Shown here: piece after piece, positions 2,937 through 43,493 of the stretch
How positions within the stretch are numbered: the stretch's first letter is position 1
Layout: every line of letters starts with the position of its first letter
Sequence record: OR352959.1
From: Escherichia phage AV129
Reading direction: 5' to 3' (one strand)
Length of the DNA stretch: 45,321 nt
Translations under genes and position numbers: made by a program
The notes under the pieces: generated by a model
What the model saw: the letters and a program-made list of their open reading frames with translations, nothing else
The model's database searches: none
Told to the model about the DNA's origin: nothing

Positions 2937-2938
2937 TG

Positions 2939-3256
2939 AAGCGGGACAAGCGGGACGTCCCGTTTTGTCCCGCCCCTGTGAAACCGCATACCTACTCACT
3001 TTCATTGCATAATCTAAAAGCGGGACAAGCGGGATGTCCCGTTTTGTCCCGCCCCACAAAAGTGCATACGTATTCAGTTTTATTGCATAAAACAAACGGG
3101 ACAGAAAGCGGGACAAACAAGGGGCGGGACAAAACGGGACAGCACCCCGTCCCCGCCAGTGCTGCCGCGGTTTTTAGCCGATCGGGACAGGCGGGACAAT
3201 CCCCAGTCTTTCAGACTAGACGGGGGGTCAGTGGCCCCCATCGTCTGAGACTGAAT
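2939..3256. repeat. CGGGACA iteron cluster with head-to-head palindromes and a long imperfect hairpin (copy 1 of a duplicated element)
   Basis: At least 12 GGGACA boxes; two near-identical palindromes GCGGGACAAGCGGGAC/GTCCCGTTTTGTCCCGC at 2941-2973 and 3021-3053; 3084-3256 is near-identical to 31893-32060. Confidence 0.7.
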
Positions 3257-3321
3257 AAGGTTTGTTTTGAAATCGCTGATACAATATCCATCGGCAACTG
3301 CATAAAAAAGGGGACTGCATA

Positions 3322-5964: not shown

Positions 5965-5971
5965 TAAAATG

Positions 5972-6000
5972 GCCCTCACATCCATCGTGGGGGCTTTTTT
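5972..6000 (+). terminator. putative intrinsic terminator
   Basis: Imperfect hairpin GCCCTCAC/GTGGGGGC followed by T6 right after the tape measure stop. Confidence 0.45.
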
Positions 6001-6600
6001 ATGTCACAAGGTACAATCACATTAACTAAGGGGAGTAAGACCGTTACGGGCGCGGGAACGGCGTTCCTTAGCGAGATCGGGAAGGTACGCGTATTCGCCC
6101 GCATCGACGGCAACGACTACACCGGCAAAATTGCAGCATTCAACTCGAACACGGTCATTACACTGAAAGATAACTGGGCCGGCCCGACAAAAGCCGGTGC
6201 GGCATATGAGCTAATCGAAGCGCACGACCCGCGATCAAACGAATGGCCCTATTACTGGCACATGCAATTGCAGGGCGGCGGCGACGTGCAGTTAGCTTTC
6301 CGATCCGAGGAATTGCAATTCGGTAATGGTTACGGTCAGAACATCGCGGACGGCCCGAACGCCGAGACGAAACAATTTCCCGTGCAATTCATCGGACTGA
6401 CTACTGACAAGTGGTGCGACCCTAAACTGGTTTACAACTTTCTTCGCGGTCACTTCGTCAAACCGTTTGTTGTCACCGCGCCGGATGGCGAAACAGGTTT
6501 ATTCGTGGTCGAGCGTTCGAGCTTGTCGTACACTGACAACGGACACAACACGGCAACGGTGTCCGCCACCCTTAAGACTGCCATTGGATTCGTAAGATGA
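6001..6600 (+). CDS. minor tail protein (gpM-like / distal tail), putative
   Basis: First ORF after the tape measure in a lambda-like order. Confidence 0.45.
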   Translation: MSQGTITLTKGSKTVTGAGTAFLSEIGKVRVFARIDGNDYTGKIAAFNSNTVITLKDNWAGPTKAGAAYELIEAHDPRSNEWPYYWHMQLQGGGDVQLAFRSEELQFGNGYGQNIADGPNAETKQFPVQFIGLTTDKWCDPKLVYNFLRGHFVKPFVVTAPDGETGLFVVERSSLSYTDNGHNTATVSATLKTAIGFVR

Positions 6601-7385
6601 ATAAACTATATCGCGAGGCGACGCGCTTTGACCCGTCGGGACGCGTTCGCCTGATCCACATTGACGCGCAGGACGTGGAGCCTGGCGACGGCGCGATCGG
6701 CGCGGGCCATCACTATTTTCACTATTGCTTTATTCCGCACACTGCCGAGGATATTGCCGCCGCAGGTGGTGACGAGGACAAGCTAAAACCTAAATCCATC
6801 TTCTTCGGCGGGCAGGAGTTCGAATTTTGGCCCTTCGATTTATCCGGTCTTAACTTCTCCACATCAACGGCAGCAGAACCGCAGCTAACCATCGTCGATA
6901 TTGGCGGAATCATCACCCGGTTGTCGCTGAATCACGACCAGCTACTGGGCGCGAAGGTTGAGATCATTGATACGTTCGCGAAGTTCCTTGATAACGGGTC
7001 GGATCCAGACCCGACGCAAAAACGTGTCCAGGAGTATTACATCGACTCACAGGTCGGTCGCAATCCTGGCAAGCAGATCACCTTCGCATTATCCTCACCC
7101 GCGGATATGGAGGGGCAAGTAGTTCCCCGCCGCCAAATAATGAATATGTGCGAATGGGCGCTCAATGGGAAGTACGCCAGCGGGGACGGCTGCACGTGGA
7201 ACCTTGCGAAGCCTGGCATCAAATACTACGACGAGCGCGGTAATGAAGTCATTGCGATGAACATGGACCGATGCGGCGGCTGTTTGTCCGACTGTTATCT
7301 TCGATTTGGGCAAGGGCTTGCGGACCCTAAAGCGGCGGTGCTGGACTTCGGAGGCTTTCCGGGGTCCAGATTAATTAAGGGGTAG
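6597..7385 (+). CDS. minor tail protein L-like
   Basis: Position between the M-like and K-like genes; C-terminal Cys cluster CGGCLSDC as in lambda gpL-type proteins. Confidence 0.55.
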   Translation: MNKLYREATRFDPSGRVRLIHIDAQDVEPGDGAIGAGHHYFHYCFIPHTAEDIAAAGGDEDKLKPKSIFFGGQEFEFWPFDLSGLNFSTSTAAEPQLTIVDIGGIITRLSLNHDQLLGAKVEIIDTFAKFLDNGSDPDPTQKRVQEYYIDSQVGRNPGKQITFALSSPADMEGQVVPRRQIMNMCEWALNGKYASGDGCTWNLAKPGIKYYDERGNEVIAMNMDRCGGCLSDCYLRFGQGLADPKAAVLDFGGFPGSRLIKG

Positions 7386-7387
7386 CC

Positions 7388-8128
7388 ATGCTGACGAAAA
7401 AGGTTAAAAGCGATATCGCCGCACATGTCGCGGCATGTCTGCCGGAAGAAGCCTGCGGCCTTGTCGTCATGGTGGGCCGTAAGCAAGTATTCGTCCCGTG
7501 CCTTAACGTGTTTGAAGACCCGACCGGCGTGCGCTCACGCAAAGACGCTTTCACGATTAGCGATATGGCCTGGATGGATGCCGAGGATATGGGCGACGTA
7601 GTGCGCGTAGTCCACTCGCACCCAGGTCAGCGCGAGTTAACCCCGTCGTTGGGCGACGTTAACGGATGCAACGGCAGCGGCGTCGTCTGGACCATCACTA
7701 ACGAATATGGCGACTTTATCGAGATCGACCCGGAAGACCCGCCGCTGGTGGGTCGCCGATTTGTTCTCGGAATTACGGATTGTTATGGCCTCGTTATGGA
7801 CTGGCACAAAAAGCAGGGAGTAAATTTGCCAGACTTCCGCGTGCCGTACAACTGGTGGGAGACCGGGGAGAACCTGTACATGGATAACTGGTACGGTGCA
7901 GGCTTCAGAGAATGCGAGGAGAATACGCCTGGGGCGATGGTCATCATGCAGATTAGCGCGCCAGTGCCTAACCATGCCGGAATCTACCTTCCGGGCAACC
8001 AACTACTACACCATATCTACGGAAGCCTGTCGAGCGTGATACCCTTCCGGGCAGGATTTTTCCGCGACAATGTGGTTAAATGGGTACGTCATAAAGACCT
8101 ACCGGGGAATATCACAGAATGGCAATGA
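7388..8128 (+). CDS. tail assembly protein K-like (MPN/JAMM + NlpC/P60)
   Basis: JAMM-like motif VVHSHPGQRELTPSLGD and Cys-containing NlpC/P60-like segment GITDCYGLV. Confidence 0.75.
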   Translation: MLTKKVKSDIAAHVAACLPEEACGLVVMVGRKQVFVPCLNVFEDPTGVRSRKDAFTISDMAWMDAEDMGDVVRVVHSHPGQRELTPSLGDVNGCNGSGVVWTITNEYGDFIEIDPEDPPLVGRRFVLGITDCYGLVMDWHKKQGVNLPDFRVPYNWWETGENLYMDNWYGAGFRECEENTPGAMVIMQISAPVPNHAGIYLPGNQLLHHIYGSLSSVIPFRAGFFRDNVVKWVRHKDLPGNITEWQ

Positions 8129-8736: not shown

Positions 8737-11700
8737 CGATTATCTACGATGTCACGGGCCATAAAGGCGGCGGTGGCAAACAGCACACCCCACAGGAGAC
8801 GCCAGACAGCCTGCATTCGCTGGCTAAAATCCGCATCTTGCTCGCGCTGGGCGAAGGTGAGTTCGAAGGCATTACCGACCCTAACGAATTACGGCAGCGC
8901 GTATACCTGGACGGAACACCGATCCAGAACGCCGACCGGTCTGAAAACTTCCCGGGCGCGCGCGTGGAGTTCCGCCCAGGCACGCAGCATCAAGACGTGA
9001 TTCACGGATTTTCAGCGGTGGAAAGTGAACAATCTGTCGGCGTAAAACTGGAAAACGGCACGCCGTGGGTGCGCCAGATTAATGACACCAGTCTTGACGC
9101 CGTGCGCATTCGAATCGGCATTCCGGCCCTGTACACTAACGAAGATAATGGCGACCTGGTGGGCGGGCGCATCGACTATAAGATCGTTGTGTATACGGAT
9201 AACGCCGACCCGCGTGAGTTCAGATTCGCCGCCGTTGGTAAAACAATGTCGCTATATGAGCGCGACCACCGCATCGAATTACCGCCGAACGTGAATACCG
9301 GCTGGCGAGTGGAGGTGCACCGCATAACGGCAGACTCCACATCGGCGAAAGTGGTTAATGATATCCGGGTGCAATCCATCACTGAGATTATCGACGCCCG
9401 CCTGCGTTACCCGCTAACCGCGCTGTTGTTTGTGGAGTTCGACGCCAAAGCGTTCCAGAACATCCCGCGCGTGTCCATCAAGTGCAAAGGCCGCAAAGTT
9501 CTAATACCGAACAACTACGACCCGATTAATCATACCTATTCCGGGGACTGGGACGGCACGTTTAAACGCGCATGGACGGATAACCCCGCGTGGCACTGGT
9601 ACGATATTTGTATTACTGAGCGCTTCGGCCTCGGTCGGCGTATCAAACCGCAAATGTTAAACCGGTACGCGCTCTACCAGATTGCGCAGCGCTGCGATCA
9701 GTTTGTCAGCGACGGCAACGGTGGTCGGGAAATCCGCTTTAAGAATGATATGTACATTCAGTCACAGACGGATGCCTGGACCGTGCTTAAGGATTTAGCC
9801 GCTATCTTTGCCGGTATGACCTGGTGGGGAAATCAGATGTTGAATATCGTCAGTGACCAGCCGGTCGCAGCGGTATCGCACACCATCACCAACGCCTCGG
9901 TCATTGATGGTCGATTCGACTACGCGTCCGGTAGCCAGAAAACCCGGTATTCCACGTTCGCGGTAGCATACGGCAACCCGAAGAACCACTATGAAGATGC
10001 CATCGCAACGGGCCAGCGCGTCGAACTGGTACGCCGCCATAAGATTAACCGTCTGGATATAACGGCGATCGGCTGTACGCGTGAGTCAGAAGCGCAACGA
10101 CGTGGGCACTGGGCGCTAATCTCCAACCAGCTTGACCAGCAAGTTAGCTTTAAGGTTGGCATGGAGGGACTTTTCTTTATTCCGGGTAGCGTAGTCGCGA
10201 TCGCCGATACAAACATTTCTGGCGGCTTCGAGACACGCGGCGGTCGCCTGTTGCCGGACCCTGGCACGCGTACCGTGCTTAACACGGACAGCGAAATCAC
10301 GTTCCGCCCAGGTGATAAATTCCTGGTACGCACCGATAGCGGTAATGTGGAGACTCGCGAGATTGCCAGCGTCAACGGCAACAAGGTCACGCTAAAAACC
10401 GCACTGGATGCCGACCCGATTCCAGACCAACCGTTTTGCGTTGATGGCGACGATATCCAGTTGCAAAAATTCCGCATCACCGACCTGGAATATGACGACG
10501 CCACCAGCACTTTCTCGGTGCGAGGGATTGAGTATAACGATAGCAAATATGATGCCGTCGATAATGGCGCTCGCCTTGACCCTGGCATCTTCACGCAAGT
10601 GCCTGACGGCGTAATGAAGGGGCCGGAATCCGTGACCATAACCCCGTCGCAGATCTCATCGCAAGGCCAGCTAATCACCAACGTGGATATTGTTTTCCCG
10701 CCGGTGAAGGATGCCGTTGTTTATGAAATCCAGTGGCGGCGTACAAGCCTGCAGAATATGGCGATCCAGTGGGGAAACGACTGGGTAAACATCCCCCGCA
10801 CGGCATCTAACGGCGCGCACATTCCTAACGTGTTCTCCGGAAACTATCAGGCGCGCGTCCGTGCGATCGGTATGGGCGAGATTTCATCCCCGTGGGTGTC
10901 GTCCGCCATCACGCCGGTGGAAGGTCGCCTCGGTGGGCTTAACGCACCAATCATCACCAACGCGATTTCTGGTCTGCATCAAATTCTATGGAAGTGGAAC
11001 CACAACAACGCCGCTTCGGATATATCATACACCGAGCTTGAAGTCCGCAAGCGGGGCGAAATGGAATGGAAGTTCTTGACCAACGTCCCATATCCGGGGT
11101 CAGACTATGCGCAAACGTCGCTGGAGTTCGGGATCTACCAGCAGTTGCGCGCCCGTGTAGCAGATAAAATCGGCAACCTGTCGGACTGGTCCGCCCCGTT
11201 TGAAGGCCAGGTGAGTGACAAAGTTGACGAGTACATGAAGGGGCTTGATGACGAGTTCTTGACTTCCGAGGATGGTAAACACTTCCAGGAAGCAATAGAC
11301 ACGATCCCGCAAGGTATCTATGAGTCTATGCTCACCGACGCCCAGCAGATATTCAATGCCCGCGCCGAGTATAAAGGTATTTATGCGGAAATCACGGTGG
11401 CGTATAACGTGGCGACTGACGCCCACAAGGCGGTCGCGCAACTTGAGACGTTGATCGGAACGCGCCTTGACGATGCGGAAGCGTCTATCCACACGTTGCA
11501 GACCGCGCAAAGCACGCACGAACAAGCGTTCGCCCAGTACCAACAAACTGTTGCCGCTAAGTTCGGGGAACAGGAAGCTGCCATCCAGCAAGTACAAACG
11601 GCAACGGCAGACGTAGCGGGCGCACTGGCGGAGTATAAGACCCAGGTCGCGGCGCAGTTCGGGCAGCAGTCCGCAGCTATCGAGCAGAAGATGACGTCCT

Positions 11701-12206: not shown

Positions 12207-13179
12207 AATATATGTTAGGAATGACGAGTAACGGGGTTGGTACTGCAATATTTTTACCCGGCATTTGGAATTGTTGCCGTGAGTAGTTGCCAATGACGCG
12301 GTTTTTAGCTATGCGCACATTATTGCCCGCCATTCGTATACCGTTCATGCGTACGTGGTTATAGCCGCCGTTGTTCTCAATAAGCGCGCCGGTGTATGAA
12401 AGCTGGACCAGGCTGTTACCGATGTACTGATCGCCGCCGCCGATATTAATAAGGCGGTCATAAACAAACGGCTTATTCACAGTTGAGAACGTGACCTGAC
12501 CCTGGTTGTTTGTCATGGTGATGCCGTTCCCAGGGGTGGGCGGCGTATTGTTGAATATAACCAAGTCCATTTCAACAGCCGCGCCTACGTCGTCAATCCC
12601 ACCATAGGATGCATTACGGACGATAATACTTCCGCCATCGAAGCCGACAGACACGTTTCCGTCGTCCCAGCGCGCGAATGGGACACCGCCTACTGGTAAC
12701 GGCATACTTCCGTTCACCCACACGCGCTGCGCATATTGGCAGGTCATTAGCCTGGACACATTGGATATAGCGGTGAAGTCCGTCGAATTCGCCACCAGTA
12801 AGCCAGCGTTGCGCGATCCCACCGGCAGCACTTCCATAATCACCCCGCCCCATGATGGAAGCCCGCTATATGCGTTATACGCGTCCTCACCGCGCAAGGT
12901 GATTCCGCTATCCCCATTACGCTGTATTGACGTTATGTAAAACGGATCTGGCAAGACCAGTGTCTGGTCGAAGACTTCCATCACTTCAACGGGACTTGTT
13001 AGCACGACGACCAGATCTGACCCCGGCGTTAGCGGAGTGTTAATAGTTAGCGTCTTGTCAGACTGGCAGCGCTGATAGAATGATGTACAGAATGACGGCG
13101 CGCGTAGCCCAGCGGTTATCTCCATAACCGGTCGCCCGTCGTTGTAGTCGATAAGTATCCCAGCGCCCATTATTACCAC
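12205..13179 (-). CDS. putative tail-associated / receptor-binding beta-rich protein
   Basis: 324-aa Gly/Asn/Thr-rich ORF on the opposite strand between the J-like gene and the side fiber, translationally coupled to an upstream lipoprotein gene. Confidence 0.3.
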   Translation of the reverse strand: MVIMGAGILIDYNDGRPVMEITAGLRAPSFCTSFYQRCQSDKTLTINTPLTPGSDLVVVLTSPVEVMEVFDQTLVLPDPFYITSIQRNGDSGITLRGEDAYNAYSGLPSWGGVIMEVLPVGSRNAGLLVANSTDFTAISNVSRLMTCQYAQRVWVNGSMPLPVGGVPFARWDDGNVSVGFDGGSIIVRNASYGGIDDVGAAVEMDLVIFNNTPPTPGNGITMTNNQGQVTFSTVNKPFVYDRLINIGGGDQYIGNSLVQLSYTGALIENNGGYNHVRMNGIRMAGNNVRIAKNRVIGNYSRQQFQMPGKNIAVPTPLLVIPNIY

Positions 13180-13394: not shown

Positions 13395-13474
13395 GGTATC
13401 ATCTCCTATATTTGGTTGAGTTTTAGTATTACACCGCTCGATCAAGAATGCAACCAATTTACGAGGATTTAGCT

Positions 13475-18455: not shown

Positions 18456-18536
18456 CGTGTTGTCTCCAGGTATTAAAAAGGGCGTCCAAACCGGACACCC
18501 TCAATATAATGCAACCAATATGATTATGCAACCAAT

Positions 18537-21735: not shown

Positions 21736-21968
21736 TTGGTCTGCAACTCCACGTTACGCAGACGAAGGTCTACCGGTATATCCGACCGGCCGGTTAGTGC
21801 CAGCGCCAGGTTTTCAGGCGTGACGAGTGCCGTAATGGTCTTGCCACGTTCCAGTCTAATGACGATTCTAATCTCGTCATTGTCCGTCGCGCCAGCGCGC
21901 ATAATGCTCATTTCTGCTTTCATAATCTTACTTCCTGTACCTGTACATAATGTCGCCTTCGGCGGCAA
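21732..21968 (-). CDS. hypothetical protein
   Basis: Small ORF immediately downstream of the polymerase gene; start uncertain. Confidence 0.3.
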   Translation of the reverse strand: MPPKATLCTGTGSKIMKAEMSIMRAGATDNDEIRIVIRLERGKTITALVTPENLALALTGRSDIPVDLRLRNVELQTK

Positions 21969-24900
21969 GTGGGAAGCCTTTCGCCCAAATAGGCAGGTCG
22001 CACATCAGCGCGCAAAGCTCCTCGGTCGTGTAGTCGTCGGTGTCCGGCACTTCTGTGATCAATTCGTCGTGTACTGACAGGACGATTTCATACCCCGCAG
22101 CTTCAACGCCAGGCATGGACCATGCGAGAATATCGCGACACAACGCCTGTACGATGTTCTCCGTCAGTTTGCCGCCGTAGGTATACTGGAATCCCCACTG
22201 GCGCGTCGTCTGATTCTCGCCCTGATATTTAATGCGTGTGCTGGTGCGCTTCTTGCCGGTGTCTTCGTCAATCTCGGTAGTGACAGACAGCGCGATGCCG
22301 GGGTAGCTCATGATGCGCCCCGACGGCAACTCAATTTTCAACCACCACCCAGCGGCGTTCGGGTCGTCGCGCTCCTCGTCAAAGGTTGGGTCGTGCTTCG
22401 CCTTCGTACGGACAATCTTGAGCGCTTTTCTACCGTCCGGGCGAACGTTCGCGCCAGCCCAGTATGCTTTACCAGGATTGCGGATTGCACACAACACCGC
22501 GTCCTCAAGCTCTGCCCAAAAGGCTACCGTCTTCGGGTGAGCCTCACGCCACATACGTTTGATCGCGTCACAGGTAAGCCATACGTTTTTCGGCAGTAAG
22601 TAGGTTGGGCGCTCGTCCTTCTTGCCGGGCTTCGGCGGGCGCTTCGCTTCGTTAATGCGAGCGTACTCATAACCACGTTTCGCCGCCGCCCAAATGTGAT
22701 CCGGGAACGTGCCTTTCATGACGTCAGCCATAGTGTAAAGGTCGAGGCCCAGGTTTTTAGCGAACTGCAAGAACGCCGCGACGCCGCCACCGTAGCCCAG
22801 ACCAAGCTCGCAGTTATGCGCCACCAGAAAACCAGACTTAGACGCAATAAGGAACCGGTTTCCGTCTTCCACATCAATCAGGTCGTAAACCGGCTCGCAA
22901 TAGGTTAACTTCCCGTTCCAGTTCAGCAATGCGGGTAAGGGCTTCATCGTACTTTCGCTGAAGCTCGGGCACGCTGCGCCGGTTACGGCAGTTTTCCGAA
23001 CGGCTGACAAACCGAAGGTTTCCAGGCTCATAGTTGCCGTCTGTATCGATCCGGTCCATTTCGAAGTCTGGCTTATCCCAGCCGTCCAGCGTTTGAACGT
23101 AGAGAAGAAACGACCTTTTATCTCTCTTCCATTCGTCACATACGGCAATCCCACGACCGCCGTAGTTTTTATACCCTTTAGCGCGGGGGTTTGCCGTTCG
23201 TGATATTGCCGCTGACAGCCGGTTGAGCAGCCGCGTTCTGTGCGCATCGTCTGGCATTGCGTCATCGTAGCAAAAATACTGTTTACGATACCGCTTTGTC
23301 GCTTCAATTGCGCAGAGGTTGCATTGGGATGTTTTACCCCTTCGGACGTTGTCATACCCGACGCGTCCTGGCATCGCTCCGCAATCACATTGGGCCAGCA
23401 GTTGTCTGTGCCCCTGTCGTTTTGGTAATTCGCGCAGGATAACCAGGCGTCCATACCTCTCGCCAGGGCGCGGACCATCGTGCACCTGTCTGAAACGAGT
23501 TGCCTTGCCTCCTTCCATGAATGCGTCAAGATTTTGTGGTCTTCTGTCATCAAGACCCCGTCCACGTCTATCACTGGTTTCCACCCCATAAGGTGCGCGC
23601 CTTTTGTACTCACCCATTTTTCGCCGTTCCATACTTTATCCGTTGATGTTACGGCCATAATATCCTTGAACCCGCCATTGGTCAATACTTGGGTATGGCG
23701 GTGCAAGCAAGCCTTCCCTATCTGGCGTAAATCCTTGCGGTTGGCTTTGATGTAATCCGGGTCAAGGCCAAACATCTTACCGGCAGTTTCACAATAGATA
23801 TCGCGACCGGCCTTAAACACCATTAGCGCGGTTTTCTCGCCTGCGGTCCAGGCAAGTCCACGCCCTTCCACGTTGGAGTAGTCCGCTACGACAAACTTCT
23901 TGCCCTTAGCCGGGATAATGCACCCGCGAACGGTCGAGGCTGTTAGCTTAGATATGTCATACGCCCAGTGCGCGGTCCCGCGTAACAGGGAATTGATGCC
24001 GTTGGTGAGCATGTGCGACCGGACCCAAAAAGCAACGTCGCTCTCGCCTTCGCGGCGCTTAATCTTCCCTTCGTGATCGTCGCTATACTCGCCGCGTGCC
24101 AGGTTTTGAGGCTGGAAGCCTTTACCCGCCCAGCGCAGCGTGCGCTTTGCGCCACCATACTGAAGACACCCACGGCGGCGACCATCTGCGGATAAGCCGT
24201 TAACTAACGGATTGTACTTAGTCGATGCCGTTGATGACGCACCGAGGCGCATTTCGATAAGCGCTTTGCCTTCGTCGGGGAAGTCCGGGTCTTCAAGCAG
24301 GTCGTTAAGTGTGGATTTCTGCGCGTTGTGGATTGTGAACGCAGGCGCGAGGTCGCGCAGCGCTGGCAGGAAGTCATTGCCGGTCAGCTTACCGCCGAAG
24401 CGCTCCCATGCTTCTTCCTTCAATTCTTCCTTATGCGCCTGCACCGCTTTGATCGCGGCGTTCGCCAGGTCAACGTCCACATAGAAGCCGCGGTCATTGA
24501 TCAACTGGTCAATAAGCAGGATTTCGTCTTCCTTCGGCGTGTTACCCCAGTCCGGTATGCGCCAGTAGACTTCCCTCATCGCTATAATATCCAGTGCGGC
24601 ATAGCGCAGGAATTTAGCCCATTCCTCGGGGTGCGTCTCGCGCGTATAGCGACGGATTTTGTAGGTCTTAGGGGTGGGCTTACAGAATCGTTTGATCAGC
24701 GCCTTGCCAGCCTTATCCTTCGCGTGCTCTGCGTCGACGCCCAACACCTGGCACTGCATATCGAGGCTACCCGGCAGCGCGTGTCGAAAGGCCATAATCA
24801 TGGTGTCTTCGATCTGGACTACCGGCAGGTCAATGCCCCACTTCTCGCGAATAACCAGGCGGTCAAACAGGAGGCCGTTAGCCATCACGATTTTTGCTTT

Positions 24901-25116
24901 CTTGCGGGATACCCGGCGGAGCGCCTTGCGCAGTTCACGCGGCATTGTGGGGGACTCGGTGCAATCCCATGTCTGCACGCGGCCCTCGTCGATGGCGTAT
25001 GTGCAAATCATAATCTCGGTAGTTGGGTGTTCCGCGTAGGCGTACGCCCCAACTTTCTTCAGGTCCACCCCGCTAAATGTCTCGGTGTCGAGAAACAGGC
25101 GTTCGAAGTCTTTCAT
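21928..25116 (-). CDS. DNA polymerase, family A with 3'-5' exonuclease domain, intein-containing
   Basis: Exo motif FLDTETFSG, motif A ADYSNVEGR, motif B split as RQIGKA / CELGLGYGGG around a ~299-codon insertion; C-terminal VHDE motif C. Confidence 0.85.
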   Translation of the reverse strand: MKDFERLFLDTETFSGVDLKKVGAYAYAEHPTTEIMICTYAIDEGRVQTWDCTESPTMPRELRKALRRVSRKKAKIVMANGLLFDRLVIREKWGIDLPVVQIEDTMIMAFRHALPGSLDMQCQVLGVDAEHAKDKAGKALIKRFCKPTPKTYKIRRYTRETHPEEWAKFLRYAALDIIAMREVYWRIPDWGNTPKEDEILLIDQLINDRGFYVDVDLANAAIKAVQAHKEELKEEAWERFGGKLTGNDFLPALRDLAPAFTIHNAQKSTLNDLLEDPDFPDEGKALIEMRLGASSTASTKYNPLVNGLSADGRRRGCLQYGGAKRTLRWAGKGFQPQNLARGEYSDDHEGKIKRREGESDVAFWVRSHMLTNGINSLLRGTAHWAYDISKLTASTVRGCIIPAKGKKFVVADYSNVEGRGLAWTAGEKTALMVFKAGRDIYCETAGKMFGLDPDYIKANRKDLRQIGKACLHRHTQVLTNGGFKDIMAVTSTDKVWNGEKWVSTKGAHLMGWKPVIDVDGVLMTEDHKILTHSWKEARQLVSDRCTMVRALARGMDAWLSCANYQNDRGTDNCWPNVIAERCQDASGMTTSEGVKHPNATSAQLKRQSGIVNSIFATMTQCQTMRTERGCSTGCQRQYHERQTPALKGIKTTAVVGLPYVTNGREIKGRFFSTFKRWTAGISQTSKWTGSIQTATMSLETFGLSAVRKTAVTGAACPSFSESTMKPLPALLNWNGKLTYCEPVYDLIDVEDGNRFLIASKSGFLVAHNCELGLGYGGGVAAFLQFAKNLGLDLYTMADVMKGTFPDHIWAAAKRGYEYARINEAKRPPKPGKKDERPTYLLPKNVWLTCDAIKRMWREAHPKTVAFWAELEDAVLCAIRNPGKAYWAGANVRPDGRKALKIVRTKAKHDPTFDEERDDPNAAGWWLKIELPSGRIMSYPGIALSVTTEIDEDTGKKRTSTRIKYQGENQTTRQWGFQYTYGGKLTENIVQALCRDILAWSMPGVEAAGYEIVLSVHDELITEVPDTDDYTTEELCALMCDLPIWAKGFPLAAEGDIMYRYRK
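22813..23709 (-). other. intein inserted in polymerase motif B
   Basis: Insertion starts with Cys (CLHRHTQVL), has block B-like VLMTEDHKILT, ends YDLIDVEDGNRFLIASKSGFLVAHN followed by +1 Cys. Confidence 0.7.
22874..23632 (-). CDS. HNH homing endonuclease, nested in the intein in a different reading frame
   Basis: Zinc-finger-like QCDCGA...SQCNLC, then YKNYGGRGIAVCDEW and DRIDTDGNYEPGNLRFVSRSEN; frame differs from the polymerase frame; likely start near 23518 (MEGGKATRF). Confidence 0.75.
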   Translation of the reverse strand: MERRKMGEYKRRAPYGVETSDRRGRGLDDRRPQNLDAFMEGGKATRFRQVHDGPRPGERYGRLVILRELPKRQGHRQLLAQCDCGAMPGRVGYDNVRRGKTSQCNLCAIEATKRYRKQYFCYDDAMPDDAHRTRLLNRLSAAISRTANPRAKGYKNYGGRGIAVCDEWKRDKRSFLLYVQTLDGWDKPDFEMDRIDTDGNYEPGNLRFVSRSENCRNRRSVPELQRKYDEALTRIAELEREVNLLRAGLRPD

Positions 25117-29138: not shown

Positions 29139-29468
29139 ATGAATGTAAACGACGCAATCGAAATGTTAACGAAGACTGTTAGCAGTGAAACAAGCCGGTC
29201 ATGGGCTTATACCGATGCCGTGGGGGCGGTGTTATTTGAAATCGAACGACTGCGGCTTACCGAAAAAGAATTGCGCGCGAAGCTGGAATTACTCAACGGT
29301 ACGGCAGCCAGCAAGCTGCAAAAGCACAATGAAGAAATGGAAGAATACAAAAAGCAGGTTATCCGTTTGCGCAATGAGGGAAAGTCATGGGCAATGATCG
29401 CCGAGTTGACCGGAATTAATCAGAGCACAGTGCGCTCCTGGGTACGCAATAATAAAACTTCAAAGTAA
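29139..29468 (+). CDS. HTH DNA-binding regulator
   Basis: C-terminal GKSWAMIAELTGINQSTVRSWV helix-turn-helix; first gene of the rightward early operon. Confidence 0.55.
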   Translation: MNVNDAIEMLTKTVSSETSRSWAYTDAVGAVLFEIERLRLTEKELRAKLELLNGTAASKLQKHNEEMEEYKKQVIRLRNEGKSWAMIAELTGINQSTVRSWVRNNKTSK

Positions 29469-29478: not shown

Positions 29479-31743
29479 ATGAGCTTGATTAAATTCGCTG
29501 TAACACGACCCGCTAAAAAAGGCGAAAAAGCCAGGGCGGAAAACTTCCAGATGACTACCGAAGAGTTTTTCGAATTTATCAAAGATGCGAAAGAAATCTC
29601 CTCGGTGCATATCAACAAGACGGAAGATAAAGCCGAGTATGCGCGCCGCAAGCGTAAGGCCGATGGTATCGTGGCTTATACCAGTGATGGGCTGCGCCGC
29701 AAGACCAGTGCCGTGGACCGTTCGATCCTGTTCTTCGATATCGACCGTACCGACACCCGCACCCTGCGCCGCTGCCGTAAGGCGTTCATCGACGCGGGAC
29801 TGGAGCACGTCTTCCACACCACAACCGGCGACCGCCACCCGCTGAAAGGCGGCACGCGTTGCGCTCGTTTCCTGGTGCTCACTGACAAGCCTGTACCGGC
29901 AGAAGACCTGGGCCGCGTCCAGTATGCACTATTACACCAACTGGGTCTGTCAGATGTGGACTTCGACGATTGTACTAAAGACACAAACCGCCTTATGTAC
30001 CTGCCACACCAGCAGTCTGTTATTAAATGCCATTACGGCAAACGTGCCCGCGTCCGTCGTCTGCTTCGCCTGGCGGATAAGCTGGGAGTGGAAAAAGAGG
30101 AAGTACGCCGCGAACTAACCCAGGGCGATGACGGCGTGGCGGACGGTATTCTGGATTGGTGCTTCCAGGCAGGATTCGAACCGCTGTCGTCCGGTCGTGG
30201 CTATGAAGTGCCATGCCCGAACGAACACCTGCACAGTGGTGAAGGGTCCACCGCTATCATGGTTAAGGATGGCGAGATCCGTTTCAAGTGTATGCACACC
30301 GGCAACGAGTGCTGTTCCGAACTGAACAGACACCAGCACCTGGCGCTACGTCTTATCGGGATCCCGGACCACTTGAACGTCGAACCGCACAACATGTCAC
30401 GTAAGCAAATCGCCGCCATCCTTCCGGGACTGGACGATGAGGAAGTGGAATCGTGCTATGCGCATATCGTTGACGCGGTTGGCGACGGCGAAGAATATGG
30501 CGTGTGCACCGATGCGGATCTGGATAACGAGCCGGTTGCGCTGTTCAGTAAGCACGACCCGATCATCGAGGGGTTGATTAACTTTAAATCGACCTGGTAT
30601 ATGGCGGGCGAGTCGAACATCGGTAAATCGTTCTACGTGCTGGGGCAAATGGGCGCTGTTGCCGCCGGTATTCCGTTCGGTGGTGCGAAGGTTGTCCAGT
30701 CGCATTGCTTCTATTTCGATGCGGAAGGTGGCGAAGCCTCCAACCAGCGTAAGGAAGCATTGCAGATCAAATATGAGCACGACCTCGACAAGCTGCACAT
30801 TATCGACCTGCAATCACGCGGCTGGGATATCACCAGCAAGTCAGGATTGCGTGAAGTTATCAGCTTCATCAACCGCACCGCTAACGGCGAACCGGTTGGC
30901 CTGGTGGCGTTCGACTCACTCAACCAGACTGTTGCGTTGCGGTCCGCCGATGCTAAACCGTTCGACGAGAACAACGCCAGCGATATGGGCGAAGTGGTCA
31001 AAGCGCTGAAGGCCATCGCGGAAAATACAGGCGGCAGTGCGGGAGTCATCCACCACCCGGCGAAAGGTGCAAACGGCAGCAGATCCCCCCGCGGGTCCGG
31101 CGCGCTGCATGGTGCTGTTGATTCGGCGTTCTTCCTTGAGCAACCGGACGACAACCAACCAGGCCAATTGAACCTGTATCACGAAAAGGCACGTAACGGC
31201 ATCAAGCAAGCGCCGCGCGGATTCGTCCTGCTCAAGTGCAAGGTTAAGGTGGATCTCCGCAAGTCCGAGGCGTTCGAAGCCCACCAGTCCACCAGCACCG
31301 GGCCGGACTTCGGCGATGTGGTTGCCGGTTGGGACGTCAAGCCAATTGCATCCACGCCACGCGACGAGACTCTTTACCTCGTACCGGTCGCCCTGGCACC
31401 GTTCGCCATTGAGCAGGCGAAGTCCGCGGGCAAAGCAGCAGTTAAAGAAGAGAACACTGCCGGACCGCGCAACGAAAAAGAGAAAGTGCTTTATGCGGCA
31501 CTGGAAAAACTGATGGAAGATAACCCGGACCATACCGGATTCAGTAAATCGGCAATTGTCCGCCAGGCTGGATTGGCAAAAGGAGGAACATCGACGAAGG
31601 CAATCGACGATATGGTCGAGCGCGGAGTGTTAGGTTTTTATACCGATCCGCACACCGGGGCCATCTATGGGTCGTCGAATATCGTCATAAAAACGAATAT
31701 ACCCATCACGCTTTCGGCGACCGACGACGACTTAAAAGATTAA
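29479..31743 (+). CDS. DNA primase-polymerase / helicase
   Basis: N-terminal prim-pol-like region (FFDIDRTD) and RecA-like NTPase with Walker A GESNIGKS. Confidence 0.8.
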   Translation: MSLIKFAVTRPAKKGEKARAENFQMTTEEFFEFIKDAKEISSVHINKTEDKAEYARRKRKADGIVAYTSDGLRRKTSAVDRSILFFDIDRTDTRTLRRCRKAFIDAGLEHVFHTTTGDRHPLKGGTRCARFLVLTDKPVPAEDLGRVQYALLHQLGLSDVDFDDCTKDTNRLMYLPHQQSVIKCHYGKRARVRRLLRLADKLGVEKEEVRRELTQGDDGVADGILDWCFQAGFEPLSSGRGYEVPCPNEHLHSGEGSTAIMVKDGEIRFKCMHTGNECCSELNRHQHLALRLIGIPDHLNVEPHNMSRKQIAAILPGLDDEEVESCYAHIVDAVGDGEEYGVCTDADLDNEPVALFSKHDPIIEGLINFKSTWYMAGESNIGKSFYVLGQMGAVAAGIPFGGAKVVQSHCFYFDAEGGEASNQRKEALQIKYEHDLDKLHIIDLQSRGWDITSKSGLREVISFINRTANGEPVGLVAFDSLNQTVALRSADAKPFDENNASDMGEVVKALKAIAENTGGSAGVIHHPAKGANGSRSPRGSGALHGAVDSAFFLEQPDDNQPGQLNLYHEKARNGIKQAPRGFVLLKCKVKVDLRKSEAFEAHQSTSTGPDFGDVVAGWDVKPIASTPRDETLYLVPVALAPFAIEQAKSAGKAAVKEENTAGPRNEKEKVLYAALEKLMEDNPDHTGFSKSAIVRQAGLAKGGTSTKAIDDMVERGVLGFYTDPHTGAIYGSSNIVIKTNIPITLSATDDDLKD

Positions 31744-32275
31744 ATTTTGCGCGCATTGGTTGCCGATATGGGAATTCCCATATCGCTAAAAGATTAATTT
31801 GTGCGCGCATTGGTTGCCATTTTGAGTGTTTTTATCTGGTCGTATTGGTTGCCGTGTAGCGTAGACGCAATGAATAGTTATGCAGATTTCGTGCATAAAC
31901 CAAACGGGACAGAAAGCGGGACAAACAAGGGGCGGGACAAAACGGGACAGCACCCCCGTCCCGCCCCGGATGGCGCGGCCTGGAGAGGCGCGGGACAAGC
32001 GGGACAAACCCCAGTCTTTCAGACTAGACGGGGGTCAACGGCCCCCCTCGTCTGAGACTGCATAAAATCCGGGATTGCAAAATACACGGCAGCATGTTGC
32101 GGATTGCGGTCGTCACTGGACTAGGCAACCAATGCGAGTTGCTGAATGGTGGGTAGAAAATGCAGTTTGCAGTTGCAGCAGATAGCGATCAACTTTTTCA
32201 TGCGCGTGATTAATATTGGTTGCATTCACCCCGGCACCTTGCTATATTGGTTGCGCACCAACAGGAGGGCGGAAC
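31744..32275. repeat. repeat-rich ori-like intergenic region (contains copy 2 of the iteron/hairpin element)
   Basis: 532 bp non-coding: 22-nt direct repeat x2, 22-bp perfect palindrome at 31764-31785, GGGACA iterons and long hairpin at 31893-32060, several TTGGTTGC boxes. Confidence 0.55.
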
Positions 32276-32455
32276 ATGAAAACCGAAATGGTTAACAAGC
32301 GCGAAATCAAGATCGGCGATACGGTAGTCCACAACGGGGAGCTTCGCACTGTGTGCAAGCGAGCGTTTAGCATTGATGAATTTATGGGCCTGCTACTTTG
32401 GGGCGACAGCTATCGTTTAGGGTGTAAACTGGTTGAGAGGGTTACGGAACTATGA
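32276..32455 (+). CDS. hypothetical protein
   Basis: ATG at 32276 preceded by AGGAGGG; 59 aa. Confidence 0.35.
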   Translation: MKTEMVNKREIKIGDTVVHNGELRTVCKRAFSIDEFMGLLLWGDSYRLGCKLVERVTEL

Positions 32456-39066: not shown

Positions 39067-40587
39067 ATGACCGTTAACGTTGACAACCAGCACCCACTTT
39101 ATGCGCGCATCGCGCAAGAGTGGAAAATGATCCGTGACTGTGTAGCAGGGGAGCGCGCCGTGAAGGCGTGCGGCCCCTTGTACCTGCCTCATCCCGCCAG
39201 TGGCGACAACACTGACCCGAAAGCACGGGCGCGGTATAAGGCGTATAAGCAGCGCGCTGTATTCCTGAACGCCACCGCCCGCACACTTAACGCGCTGTTA
39301 GGCGTTGCCTTTGCTAAACCGGTAAGTCTGGACCTTTCCGGGGCGATGGCTGACCTTATTGACGACGTAGACGGCAGCGGTATGCCGCTGCCGCAACTCC
39401 TGCGCGGTGCTATGTCCGAAGTTCTGCAATCAGGCCGTGCGGGCTTTATGGTGGACTACGATCGCCAGGCGCATTTTGATGAACTGGGTAACGTAGTGCC
39501 GCAGACCGCCGCTGAGATGGCGTCACACCGCCCGCTTATCCGCCTGTACACGGCAGAACAGATCATCAACTGGCGGCAGACCCACGGCGTCGATACGCTA
39601 ATTGTGCTGAAGGAAACGGACGAAATCAGCACCGAAGACCCGGACGACTTCGCAAACCACGAAGTAACAATCTGGACCGAGCTTCGCATGATTAACGGTG
39701 CGGCACACGCCCGCCGCTGGTTTTATAACGCGGACACGTCCGATGTGCAAATGGACTTACCGCGTGGATTCACCCGCACCGATCTTGTGCCGCTGGTGGA
39801 TGCTACCGGTAAGGCGCTGACACAACTTCCGTTTTGCTGGTGTGGCGCGGTGGACAACAACGCAACGCCAGACGCCGCTCCGCTGGCGGATATCGCATCC
39901 ATCAACATTAAGCACTACAACGCCGAAGCGGACGTCGCCGAGATCGCGCACATCGTGGGCCAACCTACCCTGGTTGCGACGGGCTTGACTCAATCATGGG
40001 CGGATAAAAACCTGAAAGGCGGCATCGCGCTCGGAGCGACTAAGGGCGTTATTCTGGGTCAGAACATGGACGCTAAACTGATCCAGGCTGAGGAGAGAAA
40101 CCTGTCAGTTGCGCTGTGTGAGCGTCGCGAATTGCAAATGGCTAAACTTGGTGCGGCCCTGGTTGAGAAGGGGACCGCACCTAAGACGGCAACAGAGGCG
40201 GCCTACGATGCGCAGACTGATAACAGTATCCTGTCGCTTATTGCCGGTAACGTTGAGAAGGCGTTCAACCGTGCGCTGCAAATCGTCCAGCTATTCACGG
40301 GCGACACCGCCGACCAGCGTGTGACGCTGAATAAGTTCTACACCGAAATCACGGTTGATGCGCAGCTTATGACCGCGATGATGTCTGGTGTGCAGACTGG
40401 TACGGTCCGACTGGCTGACTTCATCAAGTGGATGATGGCGCAGGGCGTTATCGACGACTCGCAAACCGTCGAGCAGGTGGAAGACGAATTGCGAAATCAG
40501 AATCCATTGCCCCAAATGTCCCCCGATGCGGTAGAATCTACCGAAGAAGACCCGGACAAGGTAGCGGACAATGGCGAAGACAATTAA
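39067..40587 (+). CDS. portal protein
   Basis: 506-aa ORF directly after the large terminase; acidic C-terminus. Confidence 0.75.
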   Translation: MTVNVDNQHPLYARIAQEWKMIRDCVAGERAVKACGPLYLPHPASGDNTDPKARARYKAYKQRAVFLNATARTLNALLGVAFAKPVSLDLSGAMADLIDDVDGSGMPLPQLLRGAMSEVLQSGRAGFMVDYDRQAHFDELGNVVPQTAAEMASHRPLIRLYTAEQIINWRQTHGVDTLIVLKETDEISTEDPDDFANHEVTIWTELRMINGAAHARRWFYNADTSDVQMDLPRGFTRTDLVPLVDATGKALTQLPFCWCGAVDNNATPDAAPLADIASINIKHYNAEADVAEIAHIVGQPTLVATGLTQSWADKNLKGGIALGATKGVILGQNMDAKLIQAEERNLSVALCERRELQMAKLGAALVEKGTAPKTATEAAYDAQTDNSILSLIAGNVEKAFNRALQIVQLFTGDTADQRVTLNKFYTEITVDAQLMTAMMSGVQTGTVRLADFIKWMMAQGVIDDSQTVEQVEDELRNQNPLPQMSPDAVESTEEDPDKVADNGEDN

Positions 40588-41674
40588 TCAATATATGGCG
40601 GATCGAATGATTCGCCGTCACATCTTCACCCAGCGCTTGAGCAATGATCAGGCGCGGAGGGTGCTGGCTATGTGGGAGAAATTCAGGCCCACTTTACTGG
40701 GTAAGCTGACCGAGTTACTTGATGGCAAAAAGTCCATGAACAACAAGGCACTTACCACACTGTTAACGCAACTCGACAAGACCGTCAAAACGGAACTGCG
40801 CACCGAGTTTAAGGCGCTGGCTGAAAGCCTTCAGGAGTTCGCCGACACCGAGGCTGATTATCTAGCCGACACATTAATGGCAGCGATCCAGCCTGCGGTT
40901 GCCGTACCGGCTGTTGAGGTTGTGAGCGTTGTAACCGGCGCGCAGATTGCCGCAACGGCAATGAAAAACCCGTTCCAGGGTAACACCATGATGCAATGGC
41001 CTGACTCACTTTCCGAGTGGACCAGGACGCAGATCGGCAATCAGGTGCGCGCTGGATTCATCCAGGGCAAGCCAACGATGGAAATTATTGCGGACGTGAG
41101 GCGCGCGCTAGGCGGTCGTAGTGCGCAAGCAATCTCAAGCGTTGTTAAGTCCGCAGTCAACCACTATGCGGCGACCGCCCGCGAATTAATGGTGAAAGCT
41201 AATGAAGATATTCTCGAAGGTCGCCAATGGTTGGCTACATTGGACACTCATACCTCCCCTATGTGCCAGCTACGCGACCGCCTGTTTTACCCTGTGGGCG
41301 TCACTCCCGAGACCAAAGGAAAGCGCGGCGGAAAAGTGGTGGCTGGATCGCAGTATGGCGCTGGTCCGGGCAAGCTGCATTATTGCTGCCGTTCGACGGA
41401 GACGTGGGAAGTCAAAGGTATGGAAGACTGGCCCAGTGGTAAGCGTCCGGCACTGAAGGCTGACGCGGGTCGGTTGCTGAGTGAACAGGTAGACGCGCAG
41501 ACTGATTTCTTCTCATGGGTGCAGCGCCAGCCGCGCCATATCCTGGAAGAATTATACGGGGTGCAACGCGCCGACCAGATTATGCGCGGTGTGAAAGTGC
41601 CGAAGATGTTCACCGATACGGGCGAACTAATGACTATTGCGCAGCTTAAAAACAGGGGGCTATGGCGTGATTAA
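40571..41674 (+). CDS. head morphogenesis / minor head protein (Mu F-like)
   Basis: 367-aa ORF overlapping the portal stop. Confidence 0.55.
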   Translation: MAKTINQYMADRMIRRHIFTQRLSNDQARRVLAMWEKFRPTLLGKLTELLDGKKSMNNKALTTLLTQLDKTVKTELRTEFKALAESLQEFADTEADYLADTLMAAIQPAVAVPAVEVVSVVTGAQIAATAMKNPFQGNTMMQWPDSLSEWTRTQIGNQVRAGFIQGKPTMEIIADVRRALGGRSAQAISSVVKSAVNHYAATARELMVKANEDILEGRQWLATLDTHTSPMCQLRDRLFYPVGVTPETKGKRGGKVVAGSQYGAGPGKLHYCCRSTETWEVKGMEDWPSGKRPALKADAGRLLSEQVDAQTDFFSWVQRQPRHILEELYGVQRADQIMRGVKVPKMFTDTGELMTIAQLKNRGLWRD

Positions 41675-42127: not shown

Positions 42128-42646
42128 CTACAAACGCATCGGCATGATAACAAGGAAGGCACCGCCTTTGAACAGCACACGGGTCGCCTTGTCTACTCCC
42201 TGAAATTCCAGTTTTAAGCTATCAAACTTACGGTCGAACAATTTAGCAATTTTGCAGGCGTCTGACAGGTATACCCCGGCAAACCCTATAGCTTCCACTT
42301 TAGCGCTATCGAAAGACGTAACTCTACTCCAGTCTGGGAATCGGCCGTCTACGATCTCTACGGGTATGGTACCGATTAATACGTCTTTACTATCAAAGAA
42401 CGCAGCGGAGGTGCCGTCTATGTTGCAGTATTCGAATTTAGTAGGTAAGCGGCCTTTAATTGCTACTATTTTACTTTCACCTTCGGGAACAACCGCGGAC
42501 CCGCAGAACAAACGATGACCGTCGGTGGACACGATGAATCCTTTCTCGTCGAAAAATACACCGTTCAGACAGTATCGCACGTCATTAGTCGCGGCGCACA
42601 TCATAGCGGCTTTAAGATCGGCATAGTTAACTTTAATCATTGTCAT
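42128..42646 (-). CDS. truncated DnaN-like protein (beta sliding clamp domain II plus C-terminal remnant)
   Basis: DVRYCLNGVFFD, STDGHRL, VDGRFPDWSRV and C-terminal VIMPMRL match conserved segments of bacterial beta clamp as I recall them; only 172 aa; start MTMIKVNY. Confidence 0.7.
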   Translation of the reverse strand: MTMIKVNYADLKAAMMCAATNDVRYCLNGVFFDEKGFIVSTDGHRLFCGSAVVPEGESKIVAIKGRLPTKFEYCNIDGTSAAFFDSKDVLIGTIPVEIVDGRFPDWSRVTSFDSAKVEAIGFAGVYLSDACKIAKLFDRKFDSLKLEFQGVDKATRVLFKGGAFLVIMPMRL

Positions 42647-42788
42647 TTCCTCGTTGTTGGTGTGCAACCAATATATGCAACCAATACGCGGATTGCAAGC
42701 GAATTTTGCGATTATTTTTATCACTGATAATATTAGAGGCGTGAAGTCGAGCGGGTGGCCCGCTCTGCCACAATCCCAGGGGGATAGC

Positions 42789-43493
42789 ATGAAACTTACT
42801 AAAGCAGAATATGACGCGTTGCCGGAAGGTATGAAGGCGCTTTTTGTTGCCGATGGTGACGGGTATAAATCAACGTTCATGACCGCAGAAGAAGTACAAG
42901 CGGAAATCAAGGGTCTGAAAGACAACAACGCGAAGCTGGTGAGCGAGAAGAAAGCAGAAGCTGAACGTCGCGCCGAAGCCGAGCGCCTTGCGAAAGAGAA
43001 AGAGGAAGCCGCCGCGCGCAAAAATGGCGACCTCGAAGCGATCGATAAGTCCTGGAAGGATAAGTTTGCGAAACACGAAGCAGATACATCGGGAAAAATC
43101 GAAGCCTACCGCAAGCAGATCCACGATCTAACCATCGGCAGCGCTGCCAAAGACCTGGCGTCGAAGCTGTTCGGTAAGAATGCAGGCATCATGCAACGTC
43201 ACGTTATGGATCGCCTAACGCTGGAAGACGGCGAAGACGGCAGCTTGAAAGTGCGGGTATTGCAGGATGGCAAACCGTCCGCGCTGACTATGGAAGAGCT
43301 TGAAAAAGAGTTCCGTAATAACGCCGATTTTGCATCCGTCCTGGCTGGCACGCCAGCCGGTGGCGCGCCTAGCAAACCGACGCAGGTTGTCGAAGATGTG
43401 AAGTCGAAAATCACTATGGGCCATAGCTTCGGCATCACTGACCTTACGAAACAGGCAGGTGATATCATCGCTAAGATGGGCGACGACGAGTAA
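42789..43493 (+). CDS. scaffolding protein, putative
   Basis: ATG at 42789; Glu/Lys/Ala-rich coiled segment; sits between the portal/morphogenesis genes and the major capsid gene. Confidence 0.5.
   Translation: MKLTKAEYDALPEGMKALFVADGDGYKSTFMTAEEVQAEIKGLKDNNAKLVSEKKAEAERRAEAERLAKEKEEAAARKNGDLEAIDKSWKDKFAKHEADTSGKIEAYRKQIHDLTIGSAAKDLASKLFGKNAGIMQRHVMDRLTLEDGEDGSLKVRVLQDGKPSALTMEELEKEFRNNADFASVLAGTPAGGAPSKPTQVVEDVKSKITMGHSFGITDLTKQAGDIIAKMGDDE

Follow-up and report, generated by a model that had tools for sequence, protein, structure and literature searches.

Described origin systems and the locus in phage AV129

Replication origins of the iteron type, such as lambda ori, P1 oriR and the theta origins of pSC101 and RSF1010 (oriV), are marked by clusters of short, replicon-specific repeats that lie near a replication gene. 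An adjacent palindrome is part of lambda ori, and hairpins are found in the ssiA and ssiB sites of RSF1010, whose RepA protein belongs to an origin system that combines iterons with hairpins. A comparable arrangement is encountered in Escherichia phage AV129 (sequence record OR352959.1), from which a stretch of 45,321 nucleotides, referred to here as the window, was analysed. The locus in question is a non-coding gap of 532 bp (31744-32275), extending from the stop codon of a helicase-primase gene (ending at 31743) to the ATG of the next gene (at 32276), just as an earlier sequence-only reading had placed it. The gap is a real, selected non-coding control region and is best explained as a composite cis-acting region of three parts, namely a variable left arm, a conserved core and the promoter of the downstream operon. 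Judged from the sequence, the best reading, with about an even chance of being correct, is that of an origin of the iteron type, or a site for helicase loading, joined to the downstream operon promoter.

Short, octamer-like repeats distributed over two separated regions and in both orientations are also known from P4, where ori and crr go together with the alpha protein, a multifunctional primase-helicase with a C-terminal DNA-binding domain. The alpha helicase belongs to a superfamily other than that of the RecA-type AAA_25 core found in AV129, and its C-terminal domain was not singled out in the fold search, which returned generic winged-helix matches only. Bacillus phage SPP1 is a siphovirus of about 44 kb that carries an initiator-binding repeat module twice, in the replication cluster and in the late region. 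The likeness to SPP1 oriL and oriR is by analogy only; G38P and its box sequences are unrelated to those found here. Systems that act on RNA also invite comparison, since the RNase III hairpins of T7 (R sites) and the nut/put sites likewise form co-oriented pairs between the genes of long operons, with hairpins of about 20 bp; they differ in having no iteron arrays, and the nut/put loop or shape is sequence-specific, whereas the loop described below varies freely.

The 4.4 kb around the gap are 88-92% identical to many Dhillonvirus Escherichia phages (SO-1-like siphoviruses), with matches in 161 phage records, and on this similarity the window is assigned to Dhillonvirus, as an SO-1-like coliphage. 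In the GenBank record of Sodalis phage SO-1 (GQ502199 / NC_013600), the homologous stretch after the gp48 helicase-primase gene (40178-40657) is entered as a repeat_region, 'region B', which is said to hold direct, inverted and palindromic repeats and to share sequence similarity with 'region A', annotated between the tail chaperone gene gp16 and the tape-measure gene gp17 (11214-11597). Region B is the same locus as the gap after the AV129 helicase-primase gene, its annotation is purely descriptive, and it differs in being without the 54-bp unit that bears a 22-bp palindrome in AV129. The locus was already flagged in descriptive terms in that record, and the cross-genus conservation of an ordered module appears not to have been described before; a literature search on the box sequences returned primer noise only.

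A conserved core under purifying selection

The gap region was aligned from 15 Dhillonvirus genomes, with the 4-fold degenerate sites of the adjacent helicase gene (75.5% identity) as the neutral yardstick. The conserved elements are the 14-mer TGAATAGTTATGCA, six CGGGACA iterons, a 49-nt hairpin, a ACACGGCAGCA box and a putative promoter flanked by TTGGTTGC boxes (Table 1). Identity reaches 89.7% across iterons 1-4, 94.5% in the hairpin and 97.6% in the block upstream of the promoter, hexamers included, and stands at 70% in the 17-nt promoter spacer, which serves as an internal neutral control. The core is under strong purifying selection, well above the neutral level.

Table 1. Coordinates of the gap, its elements and associated features in the window
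Feature	Position	Strand	Remarks
Region A, twin of the core	2937-3321	+	385 bp, non-coding; between tail assembly chaperone and tape-measure genes
Gene for small helix-turn-helix (HTH) protein	29139-29468	+	HTH_23/Sigma70_r4-like; annotated 'transposase' or 'resolvase' in several records
Helicase-primase gene	29479-31743	+	754 amino acids; Pfam AAA_25, PHROG 3228
Variable 54-bp duplication	31733-31818	+	32-nt direct repeats around a perfect 22-bp palindrome
Three direct 13-mer boxes, CG(C/T)ATTGGTTGCC	31752-31764, 31806-31818, 31841-31853	+	
Six TTGGTTGC boxes of the gap region	31756, 31810, 31845, 32216, 32247; 32125	+ (first five); - (32125)	
Perfect 22-bp palindrome CGATATGGGAATTCCCATATCG	31764-31785		only perfect palindrome of at least 16 bp in the window
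14-mer TGAATAGTTATGCA	31871-31884	+	forms inverted pair TTATGCA-N7-TGCATAA (31878-31898)
Iteron array, six direct CGGGACA	31905-32006 (starts 31905, 31917, 31933, 31943, 31991, 32000)	+	
Inverted partial CGGGACA copy	31929-31938 and 31958-31967		within the GGGGCGGGAC/GTCCCGCCCC pair
Three-tier hairpin, 49 nt	32012-32060	+	5-bp outer, 6+2-bp middle and 7-bp G/C inner stem
TGCATAA box	32059-32065	+	
Conserved ACACGGCAGCA box	32084-32094	+	
Fourth 13-mer box, inverted	32124-32136	-	brackets the core together with 31841-31853
Two tandem TGCAGTT copies	32161-32174	+	partly conserved; not remarkable
Downstream operon promoter region (putative)	32189-32275	+	conserved hexamers, drifting spacer
Putative P1	32189-32216	+	TCAACT, 16-nt spacer, TAATAT
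Putative P2	32220-32225 and 32243-32248	+	TTGCAT, 17-nt spacer, TATATT
Ribosome-binding site AGGAGG	32263-32268	+	

The iteron array packs its six CGGGACA copies into 102 bp, where three or more replicon-specific direct repeats are taken to make an iteron cluster. All six are invariant in 14 of the 15 aligned sequences, and the remaining one (L016) keeps five intact. The window has 20 CGGGACA copies where 6.4 would be expected, 17 of them in just two regions, six in the gap and 11 in region A. The 7-nt spacer of the TTATGCA/TGCATAA pair varies among relatives, as does the loop of the hairpin, which has a minimum free energy of -26.2 kcal/mol (z = -4.2).

That the gap holds real small protein-coding genes is most improbable. 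Small open reading frames (ORFs) of 49-84 amino acids do exist in it, coding sequences are annotated in several records, and the 49-amino-acid ORF (32146-32295), which overlaps the promoter, matches phrog_23498 and is listed as a hypothetical protein in several Dhillonvirus records. However, substitutions in this ORF are spread over codon positions 1, 2 and 3 as 29, 23 and 20, with no third-position bias, against 4, 2 and 15 in the helicase control; the ORF is broken or its start missing in 5 of the 15 relatives; the other ORFs of the gap have no PHROG match; and the reading frame of the core is not the same in the gap as in region A, where single-base indels occur among relatives. By these sequence patterns the 49-amino-acid ORF is probably an annotation artefact.

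Region A as a second copy of the core

The sequence-only reading had noticed a second copy of the iterons and hairpin, and this is borne out by the 82% identity between 31871-32047 in the gap (region B) and 3063-3239 in region A. Region A contains 11 CGGGACA copies (7 on the plus strand, 4 on the minus strand), TGCATAA boxes and the same hairpin (about 3204-3253). The core is present in all 158 Dhillonvirus records and, among the records listed, in at least two places in 39 of 40, a layout of two separated regions with the same repeats that resembles the bipartite arrangement of P4. When a 22-mer from the hairpin was sought in IMG/VR, 30 matches were obtained on 16 contigs, 14 of which carry two same-strand copies and two a single copy.

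Across phages, the TGCATAA box, the four-plus-two CGGGACA copies and the hairpin stem are essentially invariant in both regions, with the exception of one L040 copy that reads CGGGGCA, while the hairpin loop and a 25-nt middle segment are variable. Which variant of the loop, or of the last iteron pair, is found in A and which in B changes from phage to phage. Such shuffling points to exchange between equivalent modules and suggests, at the level of sequence, that the two copies are interchangeable. Two further palindromic iteron units, each 38 nt long, lie in region A (2939-2976 and 3018-3055), where the tape-measure gene is also preceded by an extended -10 element, TGaTACAAT (about 3279-3287). 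The location of region A is an unusual one for such an element.

The folding of the duplicated core (31871-32083, 3063-3260) raises the question of whether it acts as a structured non-coding RNA or an RNA that serves as a protein sponge, for example through GGA-containing CGGGACA repeats. The core folds better than shuffled sequence (z = -2.9 on the plus and -3.2 on the minus strand), two co-oriented copies occur per genome, and the hairpin shape is kept across lineages. Yet folding is equally good on the two strands, which is what inverted repeats in DNA would produce, and a generic scan found no dedicated promoter or terminator. The window has no Rfam match at gathering thresholds, the sole one at E < 5 scoring 17.5 against a 45-bit cutoff; sequences within the genus are too invariant for covariation, and RNAalifold across lineages was uninformative. 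The RNA explanation is accordingly considered improbable. A scan of the window for tRNA and tmRNA genes found none.

The ordered module in distant phages

Relatives were found via the helicase-primase protein and via the 14-mer; the scan of IMG/VR with the 14-mer gave mostly chance matches, and only those with adjacent repeat arrays were kept. Hairpins were folded sequence by sequence, as MAFFT misaligned them across lineages. The same ordered module lies right after the helicase stop in L045 (69% helicase identity), L023 (45%), L024 (43%), L028 (37%), L107 (24%) and L070. The exact 14-mer TGAATAGTTATGCA follows the helicase gene in L023, L024, L028, L070 and L107, as a single copy, doubled or as an inverted pair; L045 has one substitution (GAATAGGTATGCA), and L023 has an additional 13-nt copy (GAATAGTTATGCA). 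The iterons are lineage-specific in sequence and occur in both orientations, reading CGGGACA, GGGATAA, CCGACAG, GGGGATGA, CGGACAA or GGACAT.

Hairpins of 50-60 nt, each lineage with its own sequence and all with the same three-tier fold, are found in L045, L023, L024 and L028. L070 has a comparable inverted-repeat element (AGTCT...AGACT arms), judged by eye and not folded, and L107 has only a short palindrome in the hairpin position. A box of the TTATTCA/TGCATAA type comes after the hairpin, followed by ACACGGCA(G/A)CA (in L019, L023, L024, L026 and L028; a looser ACGGCAACA in L070) and then by the promoter. The conserved GGCAGCAT box is expanded to six tandem copies in L026 (6930-6985), and region B of L045 has a (CGCACA)n microsatellite (12590-12613); both give the impression of places in the module that are locally prone to slippage.

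L107 (IMGVR_UViG_3300037153_000557, 5908-8033) has the module between separate genes for an AAA_25 helicase (E = 2e-36) and a DnaG-like primase. This is an otherwise unrelated phage contig of 55 kb, in which the helicase gene ends in the exact 14-mer and is followed by GGACAT repeats, the palindrome and the primase gene.

Edwardsiella phage eiAU has a 900-bp gap after the helicase gene that is full of TTGGTTGC boxes and TGCATAA motifs and has no copies of CGGGACA; its tail chaperone/tape-measure gap also holds boxes. The record of eiAU-183 (L044; 42122-43017 and 1-222) is linearised exactly in that second gap, where five TTGGTTGC boxes are present. A promoter-like pair of TTGGTTGC boxes (about 42934-42946, minus strand) stands before an unannotated ATG with MIKSNH... 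as first residues. This resembles the MIKVNY... start of a clamp-like gene on the minus strand of the window (about 42128-42660). The box-rich gap and the clamp-like start together mark the chaperone/tape-measure gap as a place used repeatedly for insertion or regulation among these phages.

The helicase-primase and candidate iteron-binding proteins

The gap begins at the stop codon of the helicase-primase gene and is so linked to a replication gene whose product has, according to a model, a DNA-binding domain. The N-terminal part of the protein is primase-like, the helicase core is of the RepA/AAA_25 type, and a winged-helix domain makes up the C-terminal part (about residues 666-737). In an AlphaFold2 model of all 754 amino acids (pLDDT 77), the RecA-type core superposes best on RSF1010 RepA (TMt 0.64, root-mean-square deviation 4.6 A), so that the fold of the helicase core resembles a protein from an iteron-plus-hairpin origin. 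The C-terminal domain, of three helices and two strands, was modelled alone and gave winged-helix matches of the MarR, IclR, histone H1 and ORC2-WH type, with weak E-values (0.02-0.3) and high probabilities; it is predicted to be a winged-helix domain of DNA-binding type.

The winged-helix domain has diverged more quickly than the remainder of the protein (52-59% versus 67-70%, and about 29% versus about 45%). Its putative recognition helix reads GGT-(S/N)T(K/T)AI in the two CGGGACA lineages and GG-RR(P)A in others. The small HTH protein encoded upstream has homologues only in the CGGGACA lineages, that is in Dhillonvirus and L045/L046, and an XRE-type HTH protein takes its position in the other lineages. 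Either the winged helix or the small HTH protein could bind the iterons, the phyletic patterns being suggestive for both and clean for neither.

The promoter end and the TTGGTTGC boxes

The right-hand 90 bp of the gap look like the promoter of the downstream operon with operator-like TTGGTTGC boxes, which cover both the -35 (32216) and the -10 (32247). Conservation of TTGCAT and TATATT around a drifting spacer is a promoter signature; the flanks of P2 are 97.6% and 86% conserved against 70% for the spacer, whose length falls within the 16-18 bp of sigma-70 promoters. A generic sigma-70 scan (at least 4/6 per hexamer) did not call these putative promoters, P2 because TTGCAT, a weak -35, matches TTGACA at only three of six positions. 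The tandem TGCAGTT repeats and the boxes in both orientations, of which five or more had been noted from the sequence alone, are present, the former as two copies and the latter as six TTGGTTGC boxes, five on the plus and one on the minus strand.

Throughout the window TTGGTTGC boxes stand between genes at promoter positions, on the same strand as the genes that follow, either as the -35 or overlapping the -10, and the 9-mer ATTGGTTGC is found 15 times against 0.47 expected. A TAnnnT hexamer lies 16-18 nt downstream of 4 of 20 boxes, compared with a background of 2.9% (P = 0.002), and the layout of box and promoter seen in the gap recurs at 18528, 21473 and 28942. This distribution suggests that one phage regulator may control the whole promoter class. 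Boxes at 13450, 16595/16607, 18511/18528, 21473, 28942 and 42664/42677 lie over the -35/-10 of about seven promoters and are often paired 13-31 bp apart or palindromic, and in L028 and L070 a related box, CAGCCAACA, is found in the same role.

Replication origin or transcriptional hub

The combination of lineage-specific repeats, a palindrome of conserved shape, an invariant 14-mer, linkage to a RepA-like helicase gene and purifying selection is what would be expected of an iteron-type origin or helicase-loading site. On this reading a phage DNA-binding protein, either the winged helix of the helicase-primase or the upstream small HTH protein, would occupy the iterons, and a conserved factor would bind the 14-mer. 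The helicase-primase would then be loaded and would start priming at the hairpin or close to it; this element of the core is a long hairpin, or a palindrome able to form a cruciform. Region A would act as a second origin or as a replication enhancer, in the manner of SPP1 oriL/oriR or P4 ori/crr.

Several observations weigh against an origin. GC skew, suggested earlier as a check, has its minimum at 28-29 kb, where the gene strand switches, with no inflection at 32 kb; skew follows gene orientation here, which confounds it as an origin signal. The AT-rich stretch that had been reported is present and is modest, with AT maxima of 0.62-0.65 in 40-nt windows against about 0.45 genome-wide; AT content is highest at 31760-31880, no AT-rich 13-mer repeats were found and there is no marked unwinding element. 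The iterons are 7-8 bp long with irregular spacings (12, 16, 10 and 9 bp, within an overall range of 9-16 bp), unlike the classic iterons phased at 11 or 22 bp. The locus differs from the theta origins in iteron length and spacing, in its lack of a clear unwinding element or canonical DnaA box, and in having candidates only for the initiator. The pairing of winged helix and iterons is weakened by L023 and L024, which have similar recognition helices and different iterons. The L023 contig has its repeats in one place, with no second copy of its iteron pair, and the A/B duplication may be specific to Dhillonvirus. Jersey-like Salmonella phages have a reduced module about 1.3 kb downstream of the helicase gene, from which inserted genes of the minus strand separate it, and immediately upstream of the late promoter, so that the promoter and not the helicase gene is its constant neighbour. 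A search of plasmids gave no match to the core and no minimal-replicon precedent; the only plasmid-borne full-length helicase homologue (CP088689, 34% identity) belongs to a 44-kb phage-like element without the module. Literature searches on the origins of SO-1, Dhillonvirus, eiAU and Jerseyvirus found no functional study.

The canonical DnaA box was also considered and rejected for both copies. No exact match to TTWTNCACA occurs in region A or B, and the single exact match in the window (12473) is at chance level; the conserved TTATGCAnA box agrees with the relaxed DnaA consensus at 8 of 9 positions at best.

Since the promoter follows the module in both copies, which is a further point against an origin, a purely transcriptional or RNA-level role remains a serious rival, regarded as possible rather than probable. 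The module would then be a control hub at the boundary of early and late operons, with iterons and boxes as regulator arrays for the downstream promoters, the hairpin of the read-through transcript as an RNase III-like processing site, a stabiliser of 3′-ends or an atypical terminator, and region A doing the same job in the late operon before the tape-measure gene. Arrays, hairpin, promoter and genes follow one another in this order in both A and B, co-oriented with transcription; boxes sit on the -35/-10 of about seven promoters; and the module stays with the late promoter in Jersey-like phages. The hairpin itself, an irregular stem of roughly 20 bp whose loop is free in sequence, is as expected of a structure-specific RNA site, and one T-G position of the inner stem would pair as U-G in RNA from the plus strand. 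On the other hand, the hairpin has no U-tract after it on either strand, being followed by GCATAAAATCC, and in a consensus terminator scan the only terminator-like candidates were on the minus strand, within the iteron inverted repeat. The module of L107 stands between helicase and primase genes and not at an operon boundary, that of the Jersey-like phages has divergent genes on its two sides and is perhaps not transcribed at all, and short, lineage-specific repeats in both orientations near a replicase gene are more typical of origins.

A replication origin and early control region had been proposed for the gap from its sequence, and this remains the best single reading, though not for the palindrome-based reasons given at the time. 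The origin reading now rests on the iteron-hairpin core, with control residing in the putative promoter end.

The variable left arm

The left arm carries CGCATTGGTTGCC boxes and, in some phages only, the duplicated 54-bp unit. The perfect 22-bp palindrome described in the sequence-only reading is present as reported, and palindromes of at least 22 bp arose in 3 of 200 Markov-1 simulations. The pair of direct repeats of about 22 nt is likewise real, although the 22-mers differ at two positions and the repeat is longer than had been stated, comprising 32 nt (31733-31764 and 31787-31818, 30/32 identical, period 54 bp), with the first copy beginning within the last codons of the helicase gene. The 54-bp unit, made up of the palindrome and one repeat copy, is carried by 6 of the 15 aligned genomes and is absent from 9, SO-1 included; four of the five relatives that carry it have the symmetry broken by uncompensated single substitutions. 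Both facts point to a dispensable, optional tandem duplication, and by this comparison of sequences the palindrome and duplicated repeat are an optional extra. The weight that had been placed on them does not hold, and absence from syntenic relatives was the finding that the earlier reading had itself named as speaking against it. An EcoRI site (GAATTC, 31770-31775) lies at the centre of the palindrome, and the substitutions that break the palindrome in relatives often destroy it (GGATTC, GAATCC).

The 13-mer boxes are a separate feature. The 12-mer GCATTGGTTGCC, with at most one mismatch, is confined in the window to the gap region, with 4 matches against 0.28 expected, and the inverted 13-mer box is 97.3% identical among relatives. 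The inverted 13-14-nt copies (31840-31853, 32124-32137) that bracket the core could be taken for the ends of an insertion resembling a miniature inverted-repeat transposable element, or for part of a recombination or packaging site. The occurrence of the core in two places and the annotation of the small upstream HTH protein as a transposase or resolvase in several records fit such a selfish or structural DNA element, but region A has no bracketing 13-mers, the post-helicase position is conserved in very distant phages with other iterons, and purifying selection is strong, so that this explanation is very unlikely. A packaging site was rejected, as some 5 kb separate the gap from the terminase genes and the cos sequence that has been reported, ATCTTAAGGG, does not occur in the gap region.

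The DNA polymerase gene

The DNA polymerase ORF (21928-25116, minus strand), in which an ORF at 22874-23632 is nested, is a single frame of 1062 amino acids, about 290 longer than its counterparts in L045 and L046 (776 and 769 amino acids). The SO-1 record labels the insert as a group I intron. No intron was detected when the window was searched against Rfam at gathering thresholds, and the insert may be one that preserves the reading frame, for example an intein or a homing endonuclease.

Implications for Dhillonviruses and related siphophages

Among the siphophages of E. coli, Dhillonviruses belong to those most commonly isolated, and they serve in therapy cocktails and phage engineering and form part of the BASEL collection. 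A search of the literature found neither a mapped origin nor a described transcription programme for them. ORFs called in the gap in many GenBank records, such as that matching phrog_23498, are probably not genes. A defined cis-acting origin, if the origin reading is true, would enable minimal replicons, origin-targeted engineering and studies of replication.

More tentatively, and with doubt prevailing, the core could represent a widespread module, not described before, that serves as an origin or loads the helicase in siphophages with an AAA_25 RepA-like helicase bearing a C-terminal winged helix. The universal 14-mer may then be read by a conserved, possibly host, factor, while the lineage-specific iterons may co-evolve with the helicase winged helix and the hairpin may be the site of priming or loading; the two Dhillonvirus copies may cooperate as origin and enhancer and may also punctuate late transcription. 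The combination of an exact 14-mer with iterons that differ by lineage, placed behind RepA-like helicase genes, offers a signature for candidate origins in several unstudied phage groups, and the set of modules across lineages provides natural data on the co-evolution of initiator and iteron specificity.

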